This document shows, in pieces, positions 17,953 through 59,600 of a stretch of 64,000 nt of DNA. How positions within the stretch are numbered: the stretch's first letter is position 1; each line of letters begins with the position of its first letter. The notes under the pieces are model-generated. The model worked only from the letters and a program-made list of their open reading frames with translations, did no database searches and had not been told where the DNA came from. A program made the position numbers and the translations under genes. The DNA comes from a phage, in sequence record PX436236.1; one strand, written 5' to 3'.

Positions 17953-20034
17953 TTACCCTTGGATGAATTTTTCTGGGATGTCATAGAGGTCTATGCATGA
18001 AGCCAAAAGAGGCAGTACATCAAACCGTGTAGATTTAACAAATGAATCAAAAGATACAGGGCTTTCGGAAGTATCGAAGTCATCTTGATATACGACCAAC
18101 TCGCCGGTTTCCATTAGTACGTCACCATCATATACCACAGATTCTTGAAGCTCATCTGTTGTCATAACTTCAGCTTGGATGAGTTTTGTATTACTAGATG
18201 TTGTTCCATCATTATTAGAAGCATCTGTTATTTTATTAACTTTGACCATTAATCCACGTGGTAGAATAACTTCAGCTTCAGTTGCTATTCCGAGATTTCC
18301 TGGATATACGACATTAACTTTATGAGCTCCATCAATCGCCCATCCTATTTGAACTTTAACATAATCAGGATTTTCTTTATATGCTCTTATTTCATTAGGA
18401 TTAATAGTTATTCCTTCTTCATTTTTATCAACTGTCAATTCGTTGCGAACTTCCGGTTCTAAAAGACCAATACCAGCGTGCGTAACACCAAAACGTCCGA
18501 AAATTATAGGAGTTAAAGAAGTAGATACAAAATTTCTAAAATAAAACACTTTATTTTTAACTAGTGCTTCGTATATAGGAGCAGTCATACTCTGTGCACG
18601 ATAAACTGTAATGCCTTCCGGTATACGGTCACCATTTTCAAAAGCTGAATCTAAATTATTTACAGCGGATTCGATATCTTTTTCGCTCATAACCTCATAG
18701 TTCTGAGGATTATAACGTCCTAAAAGAAGATTATTTATGTCTGTATATCCTGAACCACAATATTCTCTGATACCACGCTTTTGTGATGGAGTATATTTAG
18801 AACCTTCACGAGCAATAGTAATATCAACCATAATACCACCACCCACACCAGCAAAACTATACACGCGTTTTTTAATGAACTTAGTCTTGGCTGCTTTCCA
18901 CTTGGCCTCTGTCAATTCGTTCCAAAGGTCATCAGGTTGGCCTTTACGAGTTCTGTTATGGATAGCCAGCCACTCGCCTTTATATTCTTCGAAAATGGTA
19001 TTAATAGCAGAGGCATATTTTTCTAGAGCTTTAACAGATGTCAAAGGTTCGTTTTTTATTGCTGTAAGAATTTTCTCTTTAATTTTCTCTTGGATTTCGC
19101 CAATACCGTGAAGTGGGAACATTTTATAATCGTAATGCAATTCTTCAGCAGTGCCTTCAGCCACTATATTAGCAACCTTATTTTTAGCCGCAGGAGAATT
19201 GTTATTAGTGACCATTTCCTGGGCCTCAGGGATTAATGGAACTGTTGCCGGTTTATTAAAATCTACTGCAGTAGCTTCATATTTCTTAAACAGCTCACTT
19301 TCATTACGATAAGATTCTAACGATTGACTTGCTGCAATAGCACGTCGAGAAATCTTAGTCTTGGTTATAACCATTTTATCAGTGCGACGTTCTTCAACCT
19401 TAGCAATACTACCGGCGATAGCAGTTTCTTTAGTAACCTGCACGCCTTCTTTTTTAGAAATATAAACTTCACCGACATCAGAATCTACCTTAGTATACAA
19501 TTCAGCATTAATTCCAGGCATACCTTTGATATCTTCTATATCAGCTTGTTTACGAACTACCAGGATGTAAGTATGTTTACCGGTAAATTGGTACATAGCC
19601 GGAACTACTTTAAAACGTCCACCTGTTTTCTGTGCTACCAAACGTTGGATAATCCGTTGAACGATAGGGCCTTGACCTTTCATTTTCTTAGTAGGGAAAC
19701 GGAACATCACGGCATCCATACGAAGCTTTTTAACTTGGTCATAAACCACATCAAAAATAGTATTAATCGCATCTACGGGAGTAGGGCCTAGGCCACCTTT
19801 AAGTTCGGCAGGCGAACCTTTAGCTGAAAGGCTCATAAGGATAACGTGGGCATATTTATCACCCATCTTAACCTGTTTAATAGCATCACCTTCAGAAGCA
19901 TAGGATACCATACGTGCTACTAACTGAGACTCCGCGTCTCCAATCTTCCAAATCTGAGGTACTTTAAGTTTTGGGTTCAAGTTCACAACAGGCAGTGTAC
20001 CTTCGGACTCGAACACTTCATTTAATTGGGTCAT
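17953..20034 (-). CDS. alt: Alt-like ADP-ribosyltransferase, paralog 2
   Basis: 693 aa; same N-terminal module; ART motifs VYRA, FVSTSL, EAEVILPRG; divergent middle and C-terminus. Confidence 0.85.
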   Translation of the reverse strand: MTQLNEVFESEGTLPVVNLNPKLKVPQIWKIGDAESQLVARMVSYASEGDAIKQVKMGDKYAHVILMSLSAKGSPAELKGGLGPTPVDAINTIFDVVYDQVKKLRMDAVMFRFPTKKMKGQGPIVQRIIQRLVAQKTGGRFKVVPAMYQFTGKHTYILVVRKQADIEDIKGMPGINAELYTKVDSDVGEVYISKKEGVQVTKETAIAGSIAKVEERRTDKMVITKTKISRRAIAASQSLESYRNESELFKKYEATAVDFNKPATVPLIPEAQEMVTNNNSPAAKNKVANIVAEGTAEELHYDYKMFPLHGIGEIQEKIKEKILTAIKNEPLTSVKALEKYASAINTIFEEYKGEWLAIHNRTRKGQPDDLWNELTEAKWKAAKTKFIKKRVYSFAGVGGGIMVDITIAREGSKYTPSQKRGIREYCGSGYTDINNLLLGRYNPQNYEVMSEKDIESAVNNLDSAFENGDRIPEGITVYRAQSMTAPIYEALVKNKVFYFRNFVSTSLTPIIFGRFGVTHAGIGLLEPEVRNELTVDKNEEGITINPNEIRAYKENPDYVKVQIGWAIDGAHKVNVVYPGNLGIATEAEVILPRGLMVKVNKITDASNNDGTTSSNTKLIQAEVMTTDELQESVVYDGDVLMETGELVVYQDDFDTSESPVSFDSFVKSTRFDVLPLLASCIDLYDIPEKFIQG

Positions 20035-54756: not shown

Positions 54757-55410
54757 ATGGAACCAAAAGTAGGAATATCATTATCAGACCTACTTTTTGG
54801 ACTTCTTGATAGAATTTTTAAAGATACTTCTTCCGGGAAAGTTGTTTTTTCCCGGGTCCTAGTCGTAATATTATTGTTCTTTATGGCATTGGTTTGGTAT
54901 AAAGGCGAGTATATTCTAAACTTTTACAAAGAGACAACTTATGCCTCTTATACTGAAATGATTAGACAAGACCAGGACAATAGATTTAAAATTGCGGCTA
55001 TCGAGCAGCTCCGAATAGTGCATTCTTCTTCAGGCGCAGACTTCACAGCAATATATTCTTTTAGACCAACCAACATGAATTATTTTGTGGATATGGTGGC
55101 TTACGAGGGTAAATTACCGGAAACGGTAGACGCAAAAAACACGGGAGGGTTTCCAATTGACAAAACGTCAGTAGAATATATGGCGGGAGTTAACGGGAAC
55201 TATTTTGAATCAAGTACCGAAACTGTATTCCTTCCTACAAAGAAGAAAACACAATTCACGTATATGTTTTCGTGCCCGTTTTTTAATTTGGATAACGTCT
55301 ACGCCGGCTCGATATCGTTGTACTGGTATGATATCAAACCGGATTTAGGATTTCCTAGACTTTCGTCTATGTGCGGTCAGGCTGGGAGGACATTAGGTCG
55401 AACACGTTAG
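54757..55410 (+). CDS. t: Holin T
   Basis: 217 aa (T4 T is 218 aa); N-terminal TM segment and conserved blocks (DLLFG.LDR.FKD..GKV, YEGKLP, LPTKK, FNLDN.YAG, GR). Confidence 0.9.
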   Translation: MEPKVGISLSDLLFGLLDRIFKDTSSGKVVFSRVLVVILLFFMALVWYKGEYILNFYKETTYASYTEMIRQDQDNRFKIAAIEQLRIVHSSSGADFTAIYSFRPTNMNYFVDMVAYEGKLPETVDAKNTGGFPIDKTSVEYMAGVNGNYFESSTETVFLPTKKKTQFTYMFSCPFFNLDNVYAGSISLYWYDIKPDLGFPRLSSMCGQAGRTLGRTR

Positions 55411-55682
55411 AAATTGGAGGTATACATCATTAAATAACGGTGTATATCTTCATATCCTTCATTAAATTGCTCAATAAGAGTGTCACGTTCATCTTCAGTT
55501 AAAGACTTAAATAATTTGTTATAAGACAAACCATTAAGTTCCTTTCCATGTTCATTACGAATACCCAACTCATTCAAAAAGGCAATAAACTCATCACGAC
55601 GTTGCATGATGTCTTCACAATCCGTTTTAATCAAAATGGAAACAATAGTAGCAATTTCGGAAACAATTTCAATTTTAGTCAT
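55407..55682 (-). CDS. asiA: Anti-sigma70 factor AsiA
   Basis: 91 aa; matches remembered T4 AsiA (ASILIK, FIAFLNE.G, LI..FNEG.E...RYL.MYT). Confidence 0.9.
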   Translation of the reverse strand: MTKIEIVSEIATIVSILIKTDCEDIMQRRDEFIAFLNELGIRNEHGKELNGLSYNKLFKSLTEDERDTLIEQFNEGYEDIHRYLMMYTSNF

Positions 55683-55723
55683 AATATTCTCTTCAATTCA
55701 GTACGTCATTATCTGATAGGGCT

Positions 55724-55752
55724 ATACTAACATATCCTTAGGGATTGTAAAC
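55724..55752 (-). promoter_or_regulatory. Early promoter cassette for asiA
   Basis: Minus-strand GTTTAC-N17-TAGTAT. Confidence 0.55.
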
Positions 55753-55896
55753 ATGTTCTTCGTTCTTTTTAACATATTCCTGATACATCTCTTCTATTGG
55801 TTCCTGGAACTTAAAATCAGCTCCCAGGAATTCCTCAAAGCACTCCTGCTCACGTGTACGCATGCCTGTTACGGTATTCTCTAAGTTATGACTCAT
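55738..55896 (-). CDS. Small hypothetical protein
   Basis: 52 aa ORF below the track cutoff; RBS AAGGG; its 3-prime end overlaps the asiA promoter. Confidence 0.35.
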   Translation of the reverse strand: MSHNLENTVTGMRTREQECFEEFLGADFKFQEPIEEMYQEYVKKNEEHVYNP

Positions 55897-55985
55897 AGCC
55901 TTTACCCTTATGTTTCTGTTTACGTTTAGACTCTTTAAAGTTTTTCTTCTTATCCTTATGGACAGAAGCCTTATTGAAATCGTGC

Positions 55986-56267
55986 TTAGCTACCAGATTG
56001 TTCACGTAATTTCCTTAATTGATATTCAAGAGAGCTGATAATTTCTTTATTAGTTGCAATATACATATCACGTAGGAACGGCTTCAACCCTTCCATATTA
56101 CCATGGATTGTCTTAGAACTAATATTCTTTATATATTCGTGGTCTAAGGCATCCCAAGCTGGTTGGTTCACATAAGTTCCCCAATTATCTTCCACCATGA
56201 CATTCAGTCGTTTAACATGATTAATATGGGCTTCGATTGCATCAATTTGGAGTTGTTTAAGATTCAT
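55986..56267 (-). CDS. Hypothetical protein (arn region)
   Basis: 93 aa ORF between asiA and motA; T4 Arn is about 92 aa but the sequence could not be verified. Confidence 0.5.
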   Translation of the reverse strand: MNLKQLQIDAIEAHINHVKRLNVMVEDNWGTYVNQPAWDALDHEYIKNISSKTIHGNMEGLKPFLRDMYIATNKEIISSLEYQLRKLREQSGS

Positions 56268-56755
56268 TAGTAAAGGTCCTCAGAGTAAAGTTCTTTTTCA
56301 CTACCGCCACGTTCAATACGAACTTGATTAGCATAAGTTGCAATAATCATTGCTTCTTCGCGAGTCCAATAGTTTGAATATTGGTCAATAAATCCTTGGT
56401 CATCACCACAAACATGGTCTGATACAAGTTTATCACTTACCTGGTCGAGAACTTCAGCCATATCTTTAGAATAATGACGAGCACCAGGAATAACCAGAGT
56501 CCCACCGTCTTTTAACTTAAAGCGGTTGGCAGCACACACAATCCTGCGCTGATATTTTTCATTGTTGTTCCAATAGGCAATCTGCCAACATATTTCAGGA
56601 ACCTCTTCTAAAACATCCTCTTCTGTATATTCGGTGTAATCACCGTATGCCCGTAATTTAGCTGCTAGACTTTCAGGCGTCTCACGAGAAAGAGCTTTAT
56701 CTAATAAAGCCATACGGTCTTTAAAGGATAATGCTTTACCTTTTAATAGATTCAT
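56267..56755 (-). CDS. Hypothetical protein
   Basis: 162 aa ORF; overlaps neighbours by start/stop coupling. Confidence 0.5.
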
Positions 56756-57099
56756 TTGAAAATCACCTTATGGCCGTTATCTTTAGCAAATTCTTGAATT
56801 TTGGTGGCAGTTTCAATTAAATCACCTTTATAATAGGATGATAATTTAATATTAACTGTTTGGCCCTCGCCATACGAAGTTATATTTACCTTTTCAATAA
56901 AAATAATCTCAAGAAATCGTAATAACTGCATACCAAATTCAAGATAAACGTTATCAATCTGGAGATCGAGTTGGTAAATTTTCTTAATACCGCTTACCAA
57001 AGCTACACGCTCGTCCCAATCATTACGTTGTTCTTCAATCAATTTAAGGGAATGACCTTCACCGTCCCAGTTAAGTTCCATCGGAATCATTTGAACCAT
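56752..57099 (-). CDS. Hypothetical protein
   Basis: 115 aa ORF. Confidence 0.5.
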
Positions 57100-57416
57100 C
57101 CTTTAACACGTTGCCATAAAGTTTTCTGTTGAGCTTTATTTACACCAATTGAACGAATAACAGGTTGTGATTCCTGGTATTCTTTGTAGTCTGCTTGGTA
57201 CACCTCACCAGCAGCATCAACGAAAGAACCTAATGCCGCCATAAAAGTATCACGAGAACCGTATGGAGCGCCTGAATCATTACGGACGATTAAGTATTTA
57301 CCGACTTTAACCTTTATGATACTTCCAAGATAAGCACCGTGATACCAGATATCCCAACCTTCTTGGGTGTTTTCTTTACAACGCTGTAATTCACACAGAA
57401 TATTAAACTTGTTCAT
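57087..57416 (-). CDS. Hypothetical protein (motA.1 region)
   Basis: 109 aa ORF immediately downstream of motA. Confidence 0.5.
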   Translation of the reverse strand: MNKFNILCELQRCKENTQEGWDIWYHGAYLGSIIKVKVGKYLIVRNDSGAPYGSRDTFMAALGSFVDAAGEVYQADYKEYQESQPVIRSIGVNKAQQKTLWQRVKGWFK

Positions 57417-57430
57417 AATAATTTCCTCAG

Positions 57431-58066
57431 TCAGATAATTGCGTTGGTTACGGTTTTGATAACTTCAGATGATACGTTTTGGAAGTCGATATAAGTATTC
57501 TTACCACCAGTCTTAATCTTAACATCAAGATTCAAGGAAGTAAACACTTGTTTTTCTTTATCAGTCATATTATAACCGAAGATGCGCATCATTCCGTCAC
57601 GACGGACTTCAATTTGACGAATACCATTGGTACGTTTGGCGAATCGAACTTCAAGGTTGCTACGGTTTTCAGCAATTTCACGAATCTCGATACGGTCTTC
57701 TAATAAAGCTTTAACTTCATCAGCCAGTGTTACCATTTCAGGAGTAACACCACGTGAACTACGCGTTTTACGTTTTTCCAACATCTCTGGGGCATTTTCA
57801 GAAGCGAACAGGTCGGCAGCTTTTTGAACTAGGTCCATTGCTTCACCTGTAGCCACTAGTCCGTCACCAGATTTTTCGATGAATCCTTTCTTAATTAATA
57901 CACCGATATTAGAGTTAACTACCGCAGCACTAAATTGCTCACTCAGGGCTTCACGGACTTCGCCTGAAGTGATGAAGTTATGCTTGATGATATGTACTAA
58001 GATCGAAGCCGTTTTTTCATTCAGGGCGTCTTCAGAAGCTTTGATGATATAAGTAATTTTAGACAT
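57431..58066 (-). CDS. motA: Middle transcription activator MotA
   Basis: 211 aa, same length as T4 MotA; near-identical N-terminus (MSKITYIIKAS.D.LNEKTA...NSNIGVLIKKG..EKSGDGL) and RTNGIR/RIFGY blocks. Confidence 0.9.
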   Translation of the reverse strand: MSKITYIIKASEDALNEKTASILVHIIKHNFITSGEVREALSEQFSAAVVNSNIGVLIKKGFIEKSGDGLVATGEAMDLVQKAADLFASENAPEMLEKRKTRSSRGVTPEMVTLADEVKALLEDRIEIREIAENRSNLEVRFAKRTNGIRQIEVRRDGMMRIFGYNMTDKEKQVFTSLNLDVKIKTGGKNTYIDFQNVSSEVIKTVTNAII

Positions 58067-58101
58067 TTTGTATCTCCGATAACCATTTATTTGATAGGTC
58101 T

Positions 58102-58130
58102 ATAGTATCATGTTTAAAGCAGATGTAAAC
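58102..58130 (-). promoter_or_regulatory. Early promoter cassette for motA
   Basis: Minus-strand GTTTAC-N17-TACTAT. Confidence 0.55.
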
Positions 58131-58154
58131 TCTTTTTGCACTAAACCTAAAAAA

Positions 58155-58170
58155 GGAACCCGAAGGTTCC
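58155..58170 (-). terminator. Intrinsic terminator with UUCG loop
   Basis: mRNA-sense GGAACC-UUCG-GGUUCC followed by UUUUUU. Confidence 0.7.
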
Positions 58171-58275
58171 TTACTTTTTAAAGTTGGCTGCTATTAAACC
58201 TATAGCTAAGCCTGTCGCCAGGCCTAGGATAACAGCAAAGATACAGAGTAACAAGAACTCGACTCCAAGGCTCAT
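58171..58275 (-). CDS. Small hydrophobic peptide downstream of gene 52
   Basis: 34 aa single-TM-like ORF (MSLGVEFLLLCIFAVILGLATGLAIGLIAANFKK); ATGA overlap with the gp52 stop. Confidence 0.4.
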   Translation of the reverse strand: MSLGVEFLLLCIFAVILGLATGLAIGLIAANFKK

Positions 58276-59600
58276 AGAGCCTCCAAATCTTTAACATACT
58301 CAGTTACAACATCAGTGGTTTTCCAATATTGATGCTCTTCTTTCTTAGCCTTGGCTTCCAAAGCCAGTTTCTTGGCTTCATCAGAAGTGATATGGAAAAT
58401 GTTCATGGCCACTAGTTTATCAGCGTATTCGCCATAGACTTTATTACTAGCCAATTCTTCGGTTAAAACCTTGCGAGTCTTACCTTGGATAACCACTACA
58501 CCATCAATAACATCTTTGATGAATGTGGCTTTAGCCAATGCCAGTTTGAAAGCTTCTTCAGTTTCGATGATTTTACCATCAATACGTTTCTGTACAAAGG
58601 TCTTACGGACCTCAACGAAATCACGAATCAGTTCAACTGCATCTTCGTAAACCTTAAGTTTACCTTTTTCATTAATGACGGTCAGGTTTTGTGAACGACG
58701 TTCGATTAACCCGAAGTCCTTCATGATTTTTTCGTGCTTCTTGTTTTCTTCAGTAGGCAATTCATATTCTTTACGAATCTTAACCTTGAAGCCGAAACCG
58801 TTCTCGTCACAATCATCATCATATGTGATATACCCTTTGTCTTCCAGAGGGTCTAATATCTTGGCCACATACGTTTCACGGTCGTATTTGTATGGGATTT
58901 CCGTGATATGCATTTGGGTTCGAGATGTGAACTTATAGGTTCCACGAATCTCATAACTACCAGGTTCAATCTCAACAACATCACCGCGGAATTCAGGATA
59001 AGCCACTTTAGGTTTGGTTACGCGTTTTTCCTGAAGAACTTGCAATACAGTTTTCTTAACAGAATCAAAACTATGAGGAAGAATATTAGTTGCATAACCA
59101 GTTGCAATACCGGAAACGCCATTAAGAAGAACAGTAGGAATAATAGGCAGATAAAAAGCCGGTGGCTTATGTTCAACATCCGCATGAACCGGAGCATATT
59201 CTGTGTCCTTATAAACTTTTGCAAAGTTACTTCCAATACGAGCAAAAATATAACGAGAGGCTGCAGCTTTTTGAACCAATCGGGAGCCAAAGTTACCTTG
59301 ACCGTCTAACAATGGATAGTTGTTGTTCCATGTGTTAGCCATCAAAGCCCCTGCTTCCTGAGCAGAACCTTCACCGTGGTGATATCCGAGGTCGGCTACA
59401 CCACCAGCGATAGAAGCCAGTTTGTGGAATTTTTCTTTATTACCACGAGCCATATCAAGACAACGAGCCACTACAAAACGTTGTACAGGTTTAAAGCCAT
59501 CAATCATATTTGGAATGGCTCGGTTTTCGACAGTATACATTGCATAAGCCAATGCTTCGTTGTCGATAATACTTTTTAAACCACGAGATGTTAATTCCAT
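58272..59600 (-). CDS. 52: DNA topoisomerase II medium subunit gp52
   Basis: 442 aa, same length as T4 gp52; type II topoisomerase A-subunit-like N-terminus. Confidence 0.85.
   Translation of the reverse strand: MELTSRGLKSIIDNEALAYAMYTVENRAIPNMIDGFKPVQRFVVARCLDMARGNKEKFHKLASIAGGVADLGYHHGEGSAQEAGALMANTWNNNYPLLDGQGNFGSRLVQKAAASRYIFARIGSNFAKVYKDTEYAPVHADVEHKPPAFYLPIIPTVLLNGVSGIATGYATNILPHSFDSVKKTVLQVLQEKRVTKPKVAYPEFRGDVVEIEPGSYEIRGTYKFTSRTQMHITEIPYKYDRETYVAKILDPLEDKGYITYDDDCDENGFGFKVKIRKEYELPTEENKKHEKIMKDFGLIERRSQNLTVINEKGKLKVYEDAVELIRDFVEVRKTFVQKRIDGKIIETEEAFKLALAKATFIKDVIDGVVVIQGKTRKVLTEELASNKVYGEYADKLVAMNIFHITSDEAKKLALEAKAKKEEHQYWKTTDVVTEYVKDLEAL

Follow-up and report, generated by a model that had tools for sequence, protein, structure and literature searches.

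The interval between the genes asiA and motA was analysed in a phage DNA stretch of 64,000 nucleotides (sequence record PX436236.1; this whole stretch is referred to as the window), and it is identified from its sequence as the arn cluster of a Dhakavirus of the JS98/WG01 type. The main finding concerns arn.3, a gene shared with T4 to which no function has been assigned so far. Its product is shown by sequence comparison to be a two-part protein, in which a head is followed by a T4_Y16D domain; the head is homologous to the two N-terminal helices of CmdA (antitoxin of the defence system CmdTAC), and on the same basis the T4_Y16D domain stands in for the chaperone-addiction tail and the ClpXP degron of CmdA. 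The CmdA-like head on arn.3 is new here in that it had been left uninterpreted. The descriptive parts of our explanation, namely the gene identities, the absence of the anti-restriction gene arn and the CmdA homology, are jointly highly probable. For the best explanation as a whole, a composite of this description and of a mechanism in which Arn.3 would act as an antitoxin mimic, we estimate a probability of about 0.55.

CmdTAC, also listed as PD-T4-9, is a toxin-antitoxin-chaperone (TAC) abortive-infection system directed against T-even phages (PMC9519451, PMC11618068), and aborts T-even infection by ADP-ribosylation of mRNA (PMC11618068). The second gene of the operon, PD-T4-9_B, codes for the antitoxin CmdA (PMC9519451). 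CmdA begins with two N-terminal helices, continues into a long unstructured chaperone-addiction tail with LAA at its end, and is degraded by ClpP; the T4 capsid protein titrates away CmdC, a SecB-like chaperone (PMC11618068). The features of arn.3 on the window are as follows (aa, amino acid residues).

56267-56755, minus strand: arn.3 orthologue, 162 aa, Pfam PF26092 (T4_Y16D)
56636-56731, minus strand: CmdA-like head of Arn.3, residues 9-40, two predicted helices
56270-56608, minus strand: T4_Y16D core of Arn.3, residues about 50-162

When the six proteins encoded in the interval were scanned with PADLOC, residues 9-40 of Arn.3 matched PD-T4-9_B at profile positions 2-33 of 77 (E 2.3e-9), and none of the other five proteins gave a match. 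The same profile was matched by 14 of 47 aligned Arn.3 relatives (best E 2e-12) and, at positions about 1-31, by each of the ten T-even-type Arn.3 proteins tested singly, T4 Arn.3 being the weakest (E 0.0026). The tail of CmdA (profile positions 34-77) was unmatched in Arn.3, and the LAA degron is absent. On the CmdA side the match opens at residue 1-2, and in the Arn.3 proteins of T4, RB69 and Bas38 it opens at residue 1. In the AlphaFold2 (AF2) model of Arn.3 (predicted local distance difference test score, pLDDT, 87.8), helices are predicted at residues 11-23 and 27-36, and the CmdA-matched segment coincides with these two N-terminal helices.

A primer sequence given in the supplement of PMC11618068 led to a real cmdTAC locus, which lies in a P2-like prophage of E. 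coli N2250 and codes for CmdT (192 aa), CmdA (77 aa; MLSFEQRMALLNKALQQYNPESLYEKLSSYPAY...LDLAA) and CmdC (129 aa); searches for bacterial cmdA by back-translated patterns in genome contigs or by tblastn in plasmids had given no match. Identity to residues 2-33 of N2250 CmdA was 19/32 for the window Arn.3, 19/29 for VR20 and 12/30 for T4, and a second CmdA allele, from an E. coli prophage, was identical to the window Arn.3 at 20/32. The alignment of Arn.3 heads was matched to CmdA by hhalign with a probability of 97.7% (E 2.3e-12). The Smith-Waterman score of the head against CmdA was 86, compared with 25.1 +/- 4.2 for shuffled sequences (maximum 53, n=20,000), corresponding to a z-score of 14.5. 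Arn.3 was the sole CmdA match among 903 open reading frame (ORF) pieces of the window, and a phmmer search of all six-frame ORFs of the window for CmdT and CmdC gave nothing better than E 0.2; the neighbours of arn.3 are a 112-aa ORF and arn.2, not CmdT or CmdC.

The homologues of Arn.3 form 384 clusters, and the head is present in 36 of the 120 clusters listed. In one protein, P0001 (203 aa, on a contig of 170,556 bp), a single Y16D core is preceded by two tandem heads, first one of the Dhakavirus type (Smith-Waterman 86 to CmdA) and then one of the T4 type (34); this is either a recombination scar or a double-headed protein. Two published surveys have noted "a component of PD-T4-9" in phage genomes, without interpretation; arn.3 itself is mentioned in a single paper of the searchable literature and is not named in the CmdTAC papers.

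The invariant residues of the Y16D domain are R93, H94, Q120, G121, F122, D124, R132, Q144 and S158; position 74 (C74 in the window protein) is Cys or Ser across the family, and the C-terminus reads LYSEDLY. The polar invariants R93, H94, Q120, D124, R132, Q144 and S158, together with Cys/Ser 74, suggest a putative binding or catalytic site. No neighbour of the T4_Y16D domain was found in PDB. Foldseek searches against BFVD detected the fold of the core in many unrelated phages and inside "large polyvalent proteins". The context of distant Y16D proteins (L006, L009 and L010) was also inspected, and these ORFan-rich phage contigs gave no clue to function.

As a mechanism we propose the following. 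The capsid protein would draw off CmdC, and ClpXP would destroy CmdA. In the place of CmdA, the Arn.3 head would then bind to CmdT-type toxins and hold them inactive, the Y16D domain being a stable body or an effector. Because its head is taken to bind toxins of the CmdT type, Arn.3 may be a protease-resistant and degron-less antitoxin mimic of CmdA, a possibility to which we give somewhat less than even odds. Slightly more tentative is a wider proposal, in which Arn.3 would be the first natural phage-encoded inhibitor of CmdTAC, the Y16D domain a new-fold effector or scaffold armed with different targeting heads in different phages, and the head alleles a possible record of an arms race with the highly variable CmdA/CmdT pairs. 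The head alleles do differ: that of T4 is degenerate, those of Dhakavirus, Gaprivervirus, Bas35 and Bas38 are well conserved, and one phage has two heads in tandem.

CmdTAC of ECOR22 restricts T4 and 10 of the 12 BASEL Tevenvirinae 100- to 100,000-fold, Bas35 and Bas38 being those that escape (PMC11618068). The heads were compared with these phenotypes for T4 and for four of the 12 BASEL phages (Bas35, Bas38, Bas39 and Bas47). The escaping Bas35 and Bas38 carry well conserved heads, with Smith-Waterman scores of 68 and 72, while the sensitive T4 and Bas39 carry degenerate heads of the MNPF.NRLKMLNVPL type, with scores of 52-54. This better conservation of the head in the escaping phages is suggestive.

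Several observations weigh against the antitoxin-mimic reading. The head of the sensitive Mosigvirus Bas47 (Smith-Waterman 75) is nearly identical to that of the insensitive Bas35, and therefore the head alone is no predictor of escape. All four BASEL phages examined carry arn.3, and T4, Bas39 and Bas47 are restricted by CmdTAC; the escape mutants selected from T4 were mapped to alt.-3, not to arn.3 (PMC11618068). Arn.3 is strongly conserved, with 75-97% identity and a ratio of nonsynonymous to synonymous substitution rates (dN/dS) of 0.03-0.13; such conservation is unusual for an arms-race gene, and a housekeeping-like partner would fit it better. The head is absent in 84 of the 120 Arn.3 clusters listed, from which it follows that the Y16D domain has a function of its own. 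Furthermore, this type of cmdTAC is rare, detected in 3 of 5426 complete E. coli genomes, and the N-terminal helices of CmdA are inferred to be its toxin-binding part by analogy with the general architecture of TAC antitoxins.

Many of these points are in agreement with a different reading, which we also hold to be tentative, that the cluster encodes accessory proteins of a generic kind for early host takeover, unconnected with defence. The Arn.3 head would then be a captured or shared two-helix module with another use, for example to dimerise the protein or to dock its Y16D domain to a host factor, or CmdA would have received its head from a phage. Besides the restriction of arn.3-carrying T4, Bas39 and Bas47, the headless state of most Y16D proteins and the lack of a PADLOC match for the other five ORFs, this reading is favoured by the conservation of Arn.3, Arn.4 and a 39-aa DUF7230 peptide of the cluster over four genera with low dN/dS, and by the spread of the DUF7230 ORF, again with low dN/dS, to phages of Klebsiella, Enterobacter and Aeromonas. 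However, the antitoxin belongs to a system that specifically targets this very subfamily of phages, and an identity of 59-66% to it across some 30 residues is difficult to regard as coincidence; the match begins at the N-terminus of CmdA and, in T4, RB69 and Bas38, also at that of Arn.3. Moreover, it is precisely the degron-bearing part of CmdA that has been lost, as a mimic would need.

The antitoxin-mimic reading, if true, would provide a function for a conserved T4 gene, a first natural anti-CmdTAC factor and a reason for the wide variation of CmdA. Should it be wrong, the shared module still shows that domains have been exchanged between a defence system carried by prophages and the phages that it targets. 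In most T-even lineages arn.3 begins with the CmdTAC antitoxin head, and CmdTAC is among the few T-even-specific defence systems. Arn.3 is a concrete and testable candidate for counter-defence. The preliminary description of this DNA had pointed to the interval as a likely site of anti-defence functions; the CmdA-like head supports that expectation as homology, not as demonstrated function. Confident homology to housekeeping proteins for all five ORFs then described, named as the finding that would speak against such a role, was not observed.

The other genes of the interval and its two flanking genes are listed below.

55407-55682: asiA, Pfam AsiA E 1e-21
55738-55896, minus strand: 52-aa acidic ORF, isoelectric point (pI) 4.6, asiA.1-like
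55886-56005, minus strand: 39-aa lysine-rich ORF, GTG start, pI 10.2, Pfam DUF7230
55986-56267, minus strand: arn.2 orthologue, 93 aa, precomputed Pfam PF26819
56752-57090, minus strand: 112-aa acidic ORF, longest reading 115 aa from 57099
57087-57416, minus strand: arn.4 orthologue, 109 aa, basic, precomputed Pfam PF26821, GAGGAAA ribosome-binding site
57431-58066: motA, MotA_activ E 2e-38, MotCF E 1e-13

The ORF listing bore out the five minus-strand ORFs previously described between asiA and motA, coordinates included, and these are real genes, but their number is six, the 39-aa DUF7230 ORF having been missed. The first gene past motA is arn.4, located 14 nucleotides (nt) downstream. The ORFs are coupled, as had been claimed, by ATGA, ATGA, TAATG, a 20-nt overlap and an 11-nt overlap along the chain; an apparent gap of 90 nt between the 52-aa and 93-aa ORFs is filled by the 39-aa ORF, whose overlaps are 20 nt with arn.2 and 11 nt with the 52-aa ORF. 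The start of the 115-aa ORF is most likely the ATG at 57090, giving 112 aa, because of its ATGA overlap with the arn.4 stop, the upstream AAGGA, and the agreement with the PHROG profile and the annotation of phage ABTNLS3. Upstream of asiA, the holin gene t and a glycine-rich gp38-type adhesin gene are located on the other strand.

Against orthologues from JS98, T4 and RB69, dN/dS was 0.03-0.27 for all six ORFs, at dS of 0.3 to about 2, indicating that these are protein-coding genes and not chance frames. Every ORF matched a PHROG family (E 1e-22 to 1e-72), all of these families being without assigned function. The statement that the ORFs have no recognisable motifs thus holds for inspection by eye only; all six belong to described families, none with an assigned function. 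The small ORFs of 39, 52 and 112 aa are short, and one or more of them are left unannotated in several GenBank records, as would be the case for chance reading frames in a spacer. The probability of this is nevertheless negligible: for these three ORFs dN/dS is 0.06-0.20 at dS of 0.3-1.4, the frames are intact in 49 to 1277 phage records, and each has a Shine-Dalgarno-like motif, a coupled start and a PHROG or Pfam family. The ORFs themselves are ordinary, being annotated hypothetical genes of a well-sampled phage genus, minus one characterised member.

Megablast assigned the window to Dhakavirus: identity was 98.0% with Salmonella phage ABTNLS3, 96-97% with WG01 and Bp7 and 88% with JS98, and partial matches were found in 691 T-even records. 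Annotated orthologues are aligned in the same order in ABTNLS3, Bp7, JS98, T4, RB69, VR20 and JS10. In T4, the order is asiA, asiA.1, arn, arn.1, arn.2, arn.3, arn.4 and motA, in agreement with the earlier statement that this T4 interval holds arn and small genes, and the T4 annotation and Pfam likewise confirmed the two flanks. By blastp against T4 proteins, the 93-aa ORF was 38% identical to Arn.2 (E 2e-21; 62% to RB69 Arn.2), the 162-aa ORF 75% identical to Arn.3 (E 3e-85) and the 109-aa ORF 73.5% identical to Arn.4 over its annotated 68 aa (E 2e-37); arn.2 matched phrog_1844 (E 1.4e-40) and arn.3 matched phrog_839 (E 1.6e-72). Over the full length and by gene order, the window proteins belong to the Arn.2, Arn.3 (T4_Y16D), Arn.4 and DUF7230 families. 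The 52-aa ORF resembled T4 AsiA.1 over its first 24 aa only (46%) and RB69 ORF258c, at the same position, over 51 aa (41%); it matched phrog_5245 (E 5e-35), was detected in 185 phage records and showed a dN/dS of 0.20 against JS98. In the same blastp search, no annotated T4 counterpart was found for the 39-aa and 112-aa ORFs, and no window ORF matched Arn or Arn.1.

The comparison covered four genera of Tevenvirinae (Tequatrovirus, Mosigvirus, Gaprivervirus and Dhakavirus). In all of them, as judged by sequence and gene order, the cluster is a five-gene core (arn.4, arn.3, arn.2, the 39-aa DUF7230 gene and the asiA.1-like gene) with three cassette slots at gene junctions between the core genes. 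A comparison across T-even phages had been proposed in the preliminary description, and it showed conserved gene order, with the arn slot occupied or empty depending on the phage. A preprint on the T2 arn transcript gives arn.1-4 no known function (bioRxiv 10.64898/2026.06.19.733364). The "anti-restriction nuclease" labels that arn.2, arn.3 and arn.4 orthologues carry in some GenBank and UniRef records look like propagation of the gene name, because the PHROG families have no assigned function and this preprint assigns arn.1-4 none.

Variation was also noted at arn.4. The T4 reference annotates Arn.4 as 68 aa, with a 109-codon frame intact (L004 2631-2957, minus strand) and 72% identical to the window protein; at the position of the window's ATG start, T4 has the codon ATA, and close relatives such as P0129, Bas35, Bas38 and Bas39 are annotated with the full length of 109 aa. 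Either a non-canonical start or a start-codon mutation would account for T4 arn.4. The window Arn.4 protein is only 76% identical to that of Bp7 (L002 2188-2517), and 100% to that of ABTNLS3, while the 112-aa ORF and the alignable residues 65-211 of MotA are both 100% identical between the window and Bp7. Such a divergent arn.4 between identical flanks indicates allele replacement by recombination within the genus. The motA of Bp7 (L002 2532-3166) is annotated as two coding sequences of 426 and 210 nt, which points to a frameshift or sequencing error in the Bp7 record.

Arn of T4 is an anti-restriction DNA mimic (PDB 3WX4; Ho et al. 2014, PMC4175342, as cited in PMC12871103). It had been left undecided whether any ORF of the interval is an Arn orthologue, and the answer is no. 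PDB searches with each window ORF or its family profile detected no resemblance to T4 Arn or 3WX4, whereas T4 Arn as a positive control matched 3WX4 with E 3e-57. No Arn-like sequence was found in the whole 64-kb window by tblastn or with a small Arn-family hidden Markov model run against the 903 ORF pieces; a match of the VR20 Arn homologue at window positions 18331-18540 was rejected as chance, lying inside a 693-aa Alt-like ORF. The absence of an Arn orthologue corrects the misleading labels on the arn.2, arn.3 and arn.4 orthologues.

With the 39-aa ORF as anchor, arn is always located between the 39-aa DUF7230 ORF and the asiA.1-like ORF. By tblastn, T4 Arn was detected in 485 phage records, all at least 88% identical. 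The same slot is occupied in RB69 by ORF259c (99 aa; L005 1038-1337), in VR20 by gp167 (98 aa; L011 2308-2604), in Bas38 by a protein of 99 aa and in the Dhakavirus JS10 by one of 93 aa (L013 608-889), with computed pI of 4.05-4.3 for JS10, VR20 and RB69. A profile built from the JS10, VR20 and RB69 cassettes gave 3WX4 as its top PDB match (E 0.0093, 82 positions aligned; hhalign E 1e-3). According to this profile comparison, divergent Arn homologues are what Mosigvirus, Gaprivervirus and some Dhakavirus genomes carry in this slot under the label "hypothetical protein", and the family accordingly extends beyond the 485 Tequatrovirus records detected by tblastn. The corresponding site of the window is given below.

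55893-55898, minus strand: empty arn slot, junction CTATGA, the 39-aa ORF running directly into the asiA.1-like ORF

No acidic ORF of 92-99 aa is present in the window between the 39-aa and asiA.1-like ORFs, which overlap by 11 nt. JS10 reads GGCTATGA-TTACT, cassette, ACCTATGA-GTCATAAC, with a second CTATGA before GTCATAAC, while the window reads GGCTATGA-GTCATAAC without the cassette. Recombination (deletion) between the two CTATGA repeats would be expected to yield exactly this window junction. No gene occupies the arn.1 slot either, which is located between arn.2 and the 39-aa ORF. Since the arn slot is empty, the cluster is predicted to lack an inhibitor of McrBC. In T2, the host small RNA ArcZ pairs with a site at the 3' end of arn.2 (+285..+294), followed by an RNase E-sensitive spacer (bioRxiv 10.64898/2026.06.19.733364). 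The corresponding sequence CCAGGGAAAT was derived from T4 arn.2 at these T2 positions (T4 L004 about 1877-1900). It was not found in the interval, and the spacer after arn.2 is gone as well, the window arn.2 overlapping the next ORF (window 55986-56010) where T2 has the spacer.

The 112-aa ORF is located at the arn.4/arn.3 junction and belongs to phrog_14178 (E 3.5e-68). It was found in 49 phage records only, all of Dhakavirus or Gaprivervirus, and its homologues form three clusters among 1.84 billion representative proteins; no counterpart exists in T4 or RB69, and dN/dS against JS98 is 0.11. Residues 1-20 correspond to the N-terminal module found at the head of Arn.3 in Serratia phage X20 and in several metagenomic relatives. 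This module matches the N-termini of P0031, P0021 and P0044, and in P0021 it is followed directly by the segment with which the window Arn.3 opens. The junction sequence TTCAAATGA is present at both ends of the 112-aa ORF. In the simplest reading of these sequences, the ORF would be chimeric: about 300 bp would have been inserted within the 5' end of arn.3 in an ancestor, creating both the chimeric ORF and a new start for arn.3. In Bas35 (WilhelmHis, L017 4841-4996, minus strand), a different ORF of 51 aa is located in the same arn.4/arn.3 slot.

Both the 52-aa and the 112-aa ORFs are acidic (the latter with pI 4.99 and net charge -5 in its 115-aa reading), they lie in the arn operon, and the 112-aa ORF is confined to Dhakavirus and Gaprivervirus, several members of which are without arn. 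One of them might accordingly be regarded as a functional Arn analogue, a DNA mimic replacing the missing gene. We consider this very unlikely: orthologues of the 52-aa ORF coexist with arn in T4, RB69, VR20 and JS10, and this ORF is therefore no replacement for arn; the 112-aa ORF stands alongside an Arn homologue in VR20 and JS10; and neither ORF has sequence similarity to 3WX4.

The 39-aa ORF matched Pfam DUF7230 (E 6e-13) and phrog_1359 (E 1e-22), and tblastn detected it in 1277 phage records from Escherichia, Klebsiella, Enterobacter and Aeromonas phages. An unannotated ORF of T4 NC_000866 (L004 1581-1700, minus strand), located between arn.1 and arn and overlapping the ends of both, is 84% identical to it, with a dN/dS of 0.06. 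Among the genes compared with T4, the 39-aa ORF is the most conserved of the interval, the identity being 51% for AsiA and MotA. It is also unannotated in VR20 (L011 about 2199-2318), RB69 (L005 1327-1446, minus strand) and Bp7. An ArfA-like nature of the peptide was rejected, hhalign giving a probability of 0.3%. The five proteins other than Arn.3 are most likely small early host-takeover factors binding conserved host machinery, with no particular mechanism supported.

For Arn.2, residues 65-90 (window 55986-56063; RDMYIATNKEIISSLEYQLRKLREQ) resemble helix alpha-2 of E. coli RaiA at equal distance from the N-terminus, with marginal E-values. The top PDB matches of the Arn.2 profile were RaiA/YfiA (E 0.058-0.084, residues 66-90 against RaiA 67-90), NCBIfam RaiA was matched by 5 of 18 Arn.2 proteins (best E 0.0098), and hhalign gave a probability of 87.6% over 25 columns with 52% identity. 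These matches raise the idea that Arn.2 acts on the ribosome by means of a C-terminal helix copying RaiA helix alpha-2, and possibly also the 39-aa peptide, which is extremely conserved and has a pI of 10.2. Such a role is improbable. The match is limited to a single helix, Pfam S30AE (Ribosomal_S30AE) is not among the matches, the window protein scores 13.8 bits against NCBIfam RaiA with a cut-off of 158, the E-values are marginal after database correction, and the rest of Arn.2 looks helical by eye from its sequence, without the RaiA beta-sheet; for the 39-aa peptide, the rejected ArfA similarity also argues against it. Arn.2 resembles the S30AE/HPF family in the C-terminal helix only, not over the full length, and its possible RaiA homology is a weak lead.

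For expression of the cluster, the following signals were detected.

58102-58129, minus strand: early-type promoter-like site, TTTACA, 16 nt, TACTAT, with TG, upstream of motA, from a consensus scan only
58153-58172, minus strand: terminator-like hairpin, preceding the promoter-like site at 58102-58129
55724-55751, minus strand: early-type promoter-like site, TTTACA, 16 nt, TAGTAT, with TG, in the 3' end of the 52-aa ORF, before asiA, from a consensus scan only

The scan found no terminator-like site on the minus strand from motA to the 52-aa ORF. On the same, coding, strand of the interval, no MotA-box middle-promoter was found with the pattern used, and no Rfam family was matched in 55300-58400. 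The six genes are probably co-transcribed with motA from its early promoter and translationally coupled, because a promoter-like site exists upstream of motA, no terminator-like site follows, and the ORFs are coupled. Past motA, a hydrophobic ORF of 34 aa is followed by gene 52. This ORF (MSLGVEFLLLCIFAVILGLATGLAIGLIAANFKK; 58171-58275, minus strand) overlaps the gene 52 stop, and a strong terminator-like hairpin comes after it; it takes the position of T4 MotA.1, a predicted membrane peptide, without sequence similarity to MotA.1.

Compared with the arn operon of T4 and T2, the window cluster has the same position between motA and asiA, the same strand and the same gene order, with identities of 72% for arn.4, 75% for arn.3 and 38% for arn.2, and a similar asiA.1 N-terminus; the 39-aa DUF7230 ORF is also shared with T4, though unannotated there. 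The cluster differs in being without arn, arn.1, the ArcZ site CCAGGGAAAT and the following intergenic region, and in having the extra 112-aa ORF between arn.4 and arn.3. As to Arn (3WX4), the operon of related phages contains it or its divergent homologues of 93-99 aa in a fixed slot (RB69, VR20, JS10 and Bas38), while the window ORFs are dissimilar and the slot is empty. Arn.2 and RaiA/YfiA share the C-terminal helix motif DMY.A.N.E.I..LE.QL.KL, 52% identical over 25 columns; the remainder is dissimilar and the Pfam family is unmatched.

With CmdA, Arn.3 shares an N-terminal module of about 32 residues, 59-62% identical, the helix pair being predicted for Arn.3 and described for CmdA. In contrast to CmdA, Arn.3 has neither the addiction tail nor LAA and ends with LYSEDLY after a folded Y16D domain of 110 aa; it is encoded by a phage, not by a P2-like prophage, and has no adjacent CmdT ADP-ribosyltransferase or SecB-like CmdC. 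T4 Dmd is a phage-encoded substitute for the antitoxins of the RnlA and LsoA toxins. Dmd is not known to be related in sequence to host antitoxins, while Arn.3, whose activity is putative, would owe its mimicry to homology and carries a second, fused domain. The logic proposed for Arn.3 is that of Dmd, in that a stable phage protein would neutralise a host toxin once the labile host antitoxin is gone.

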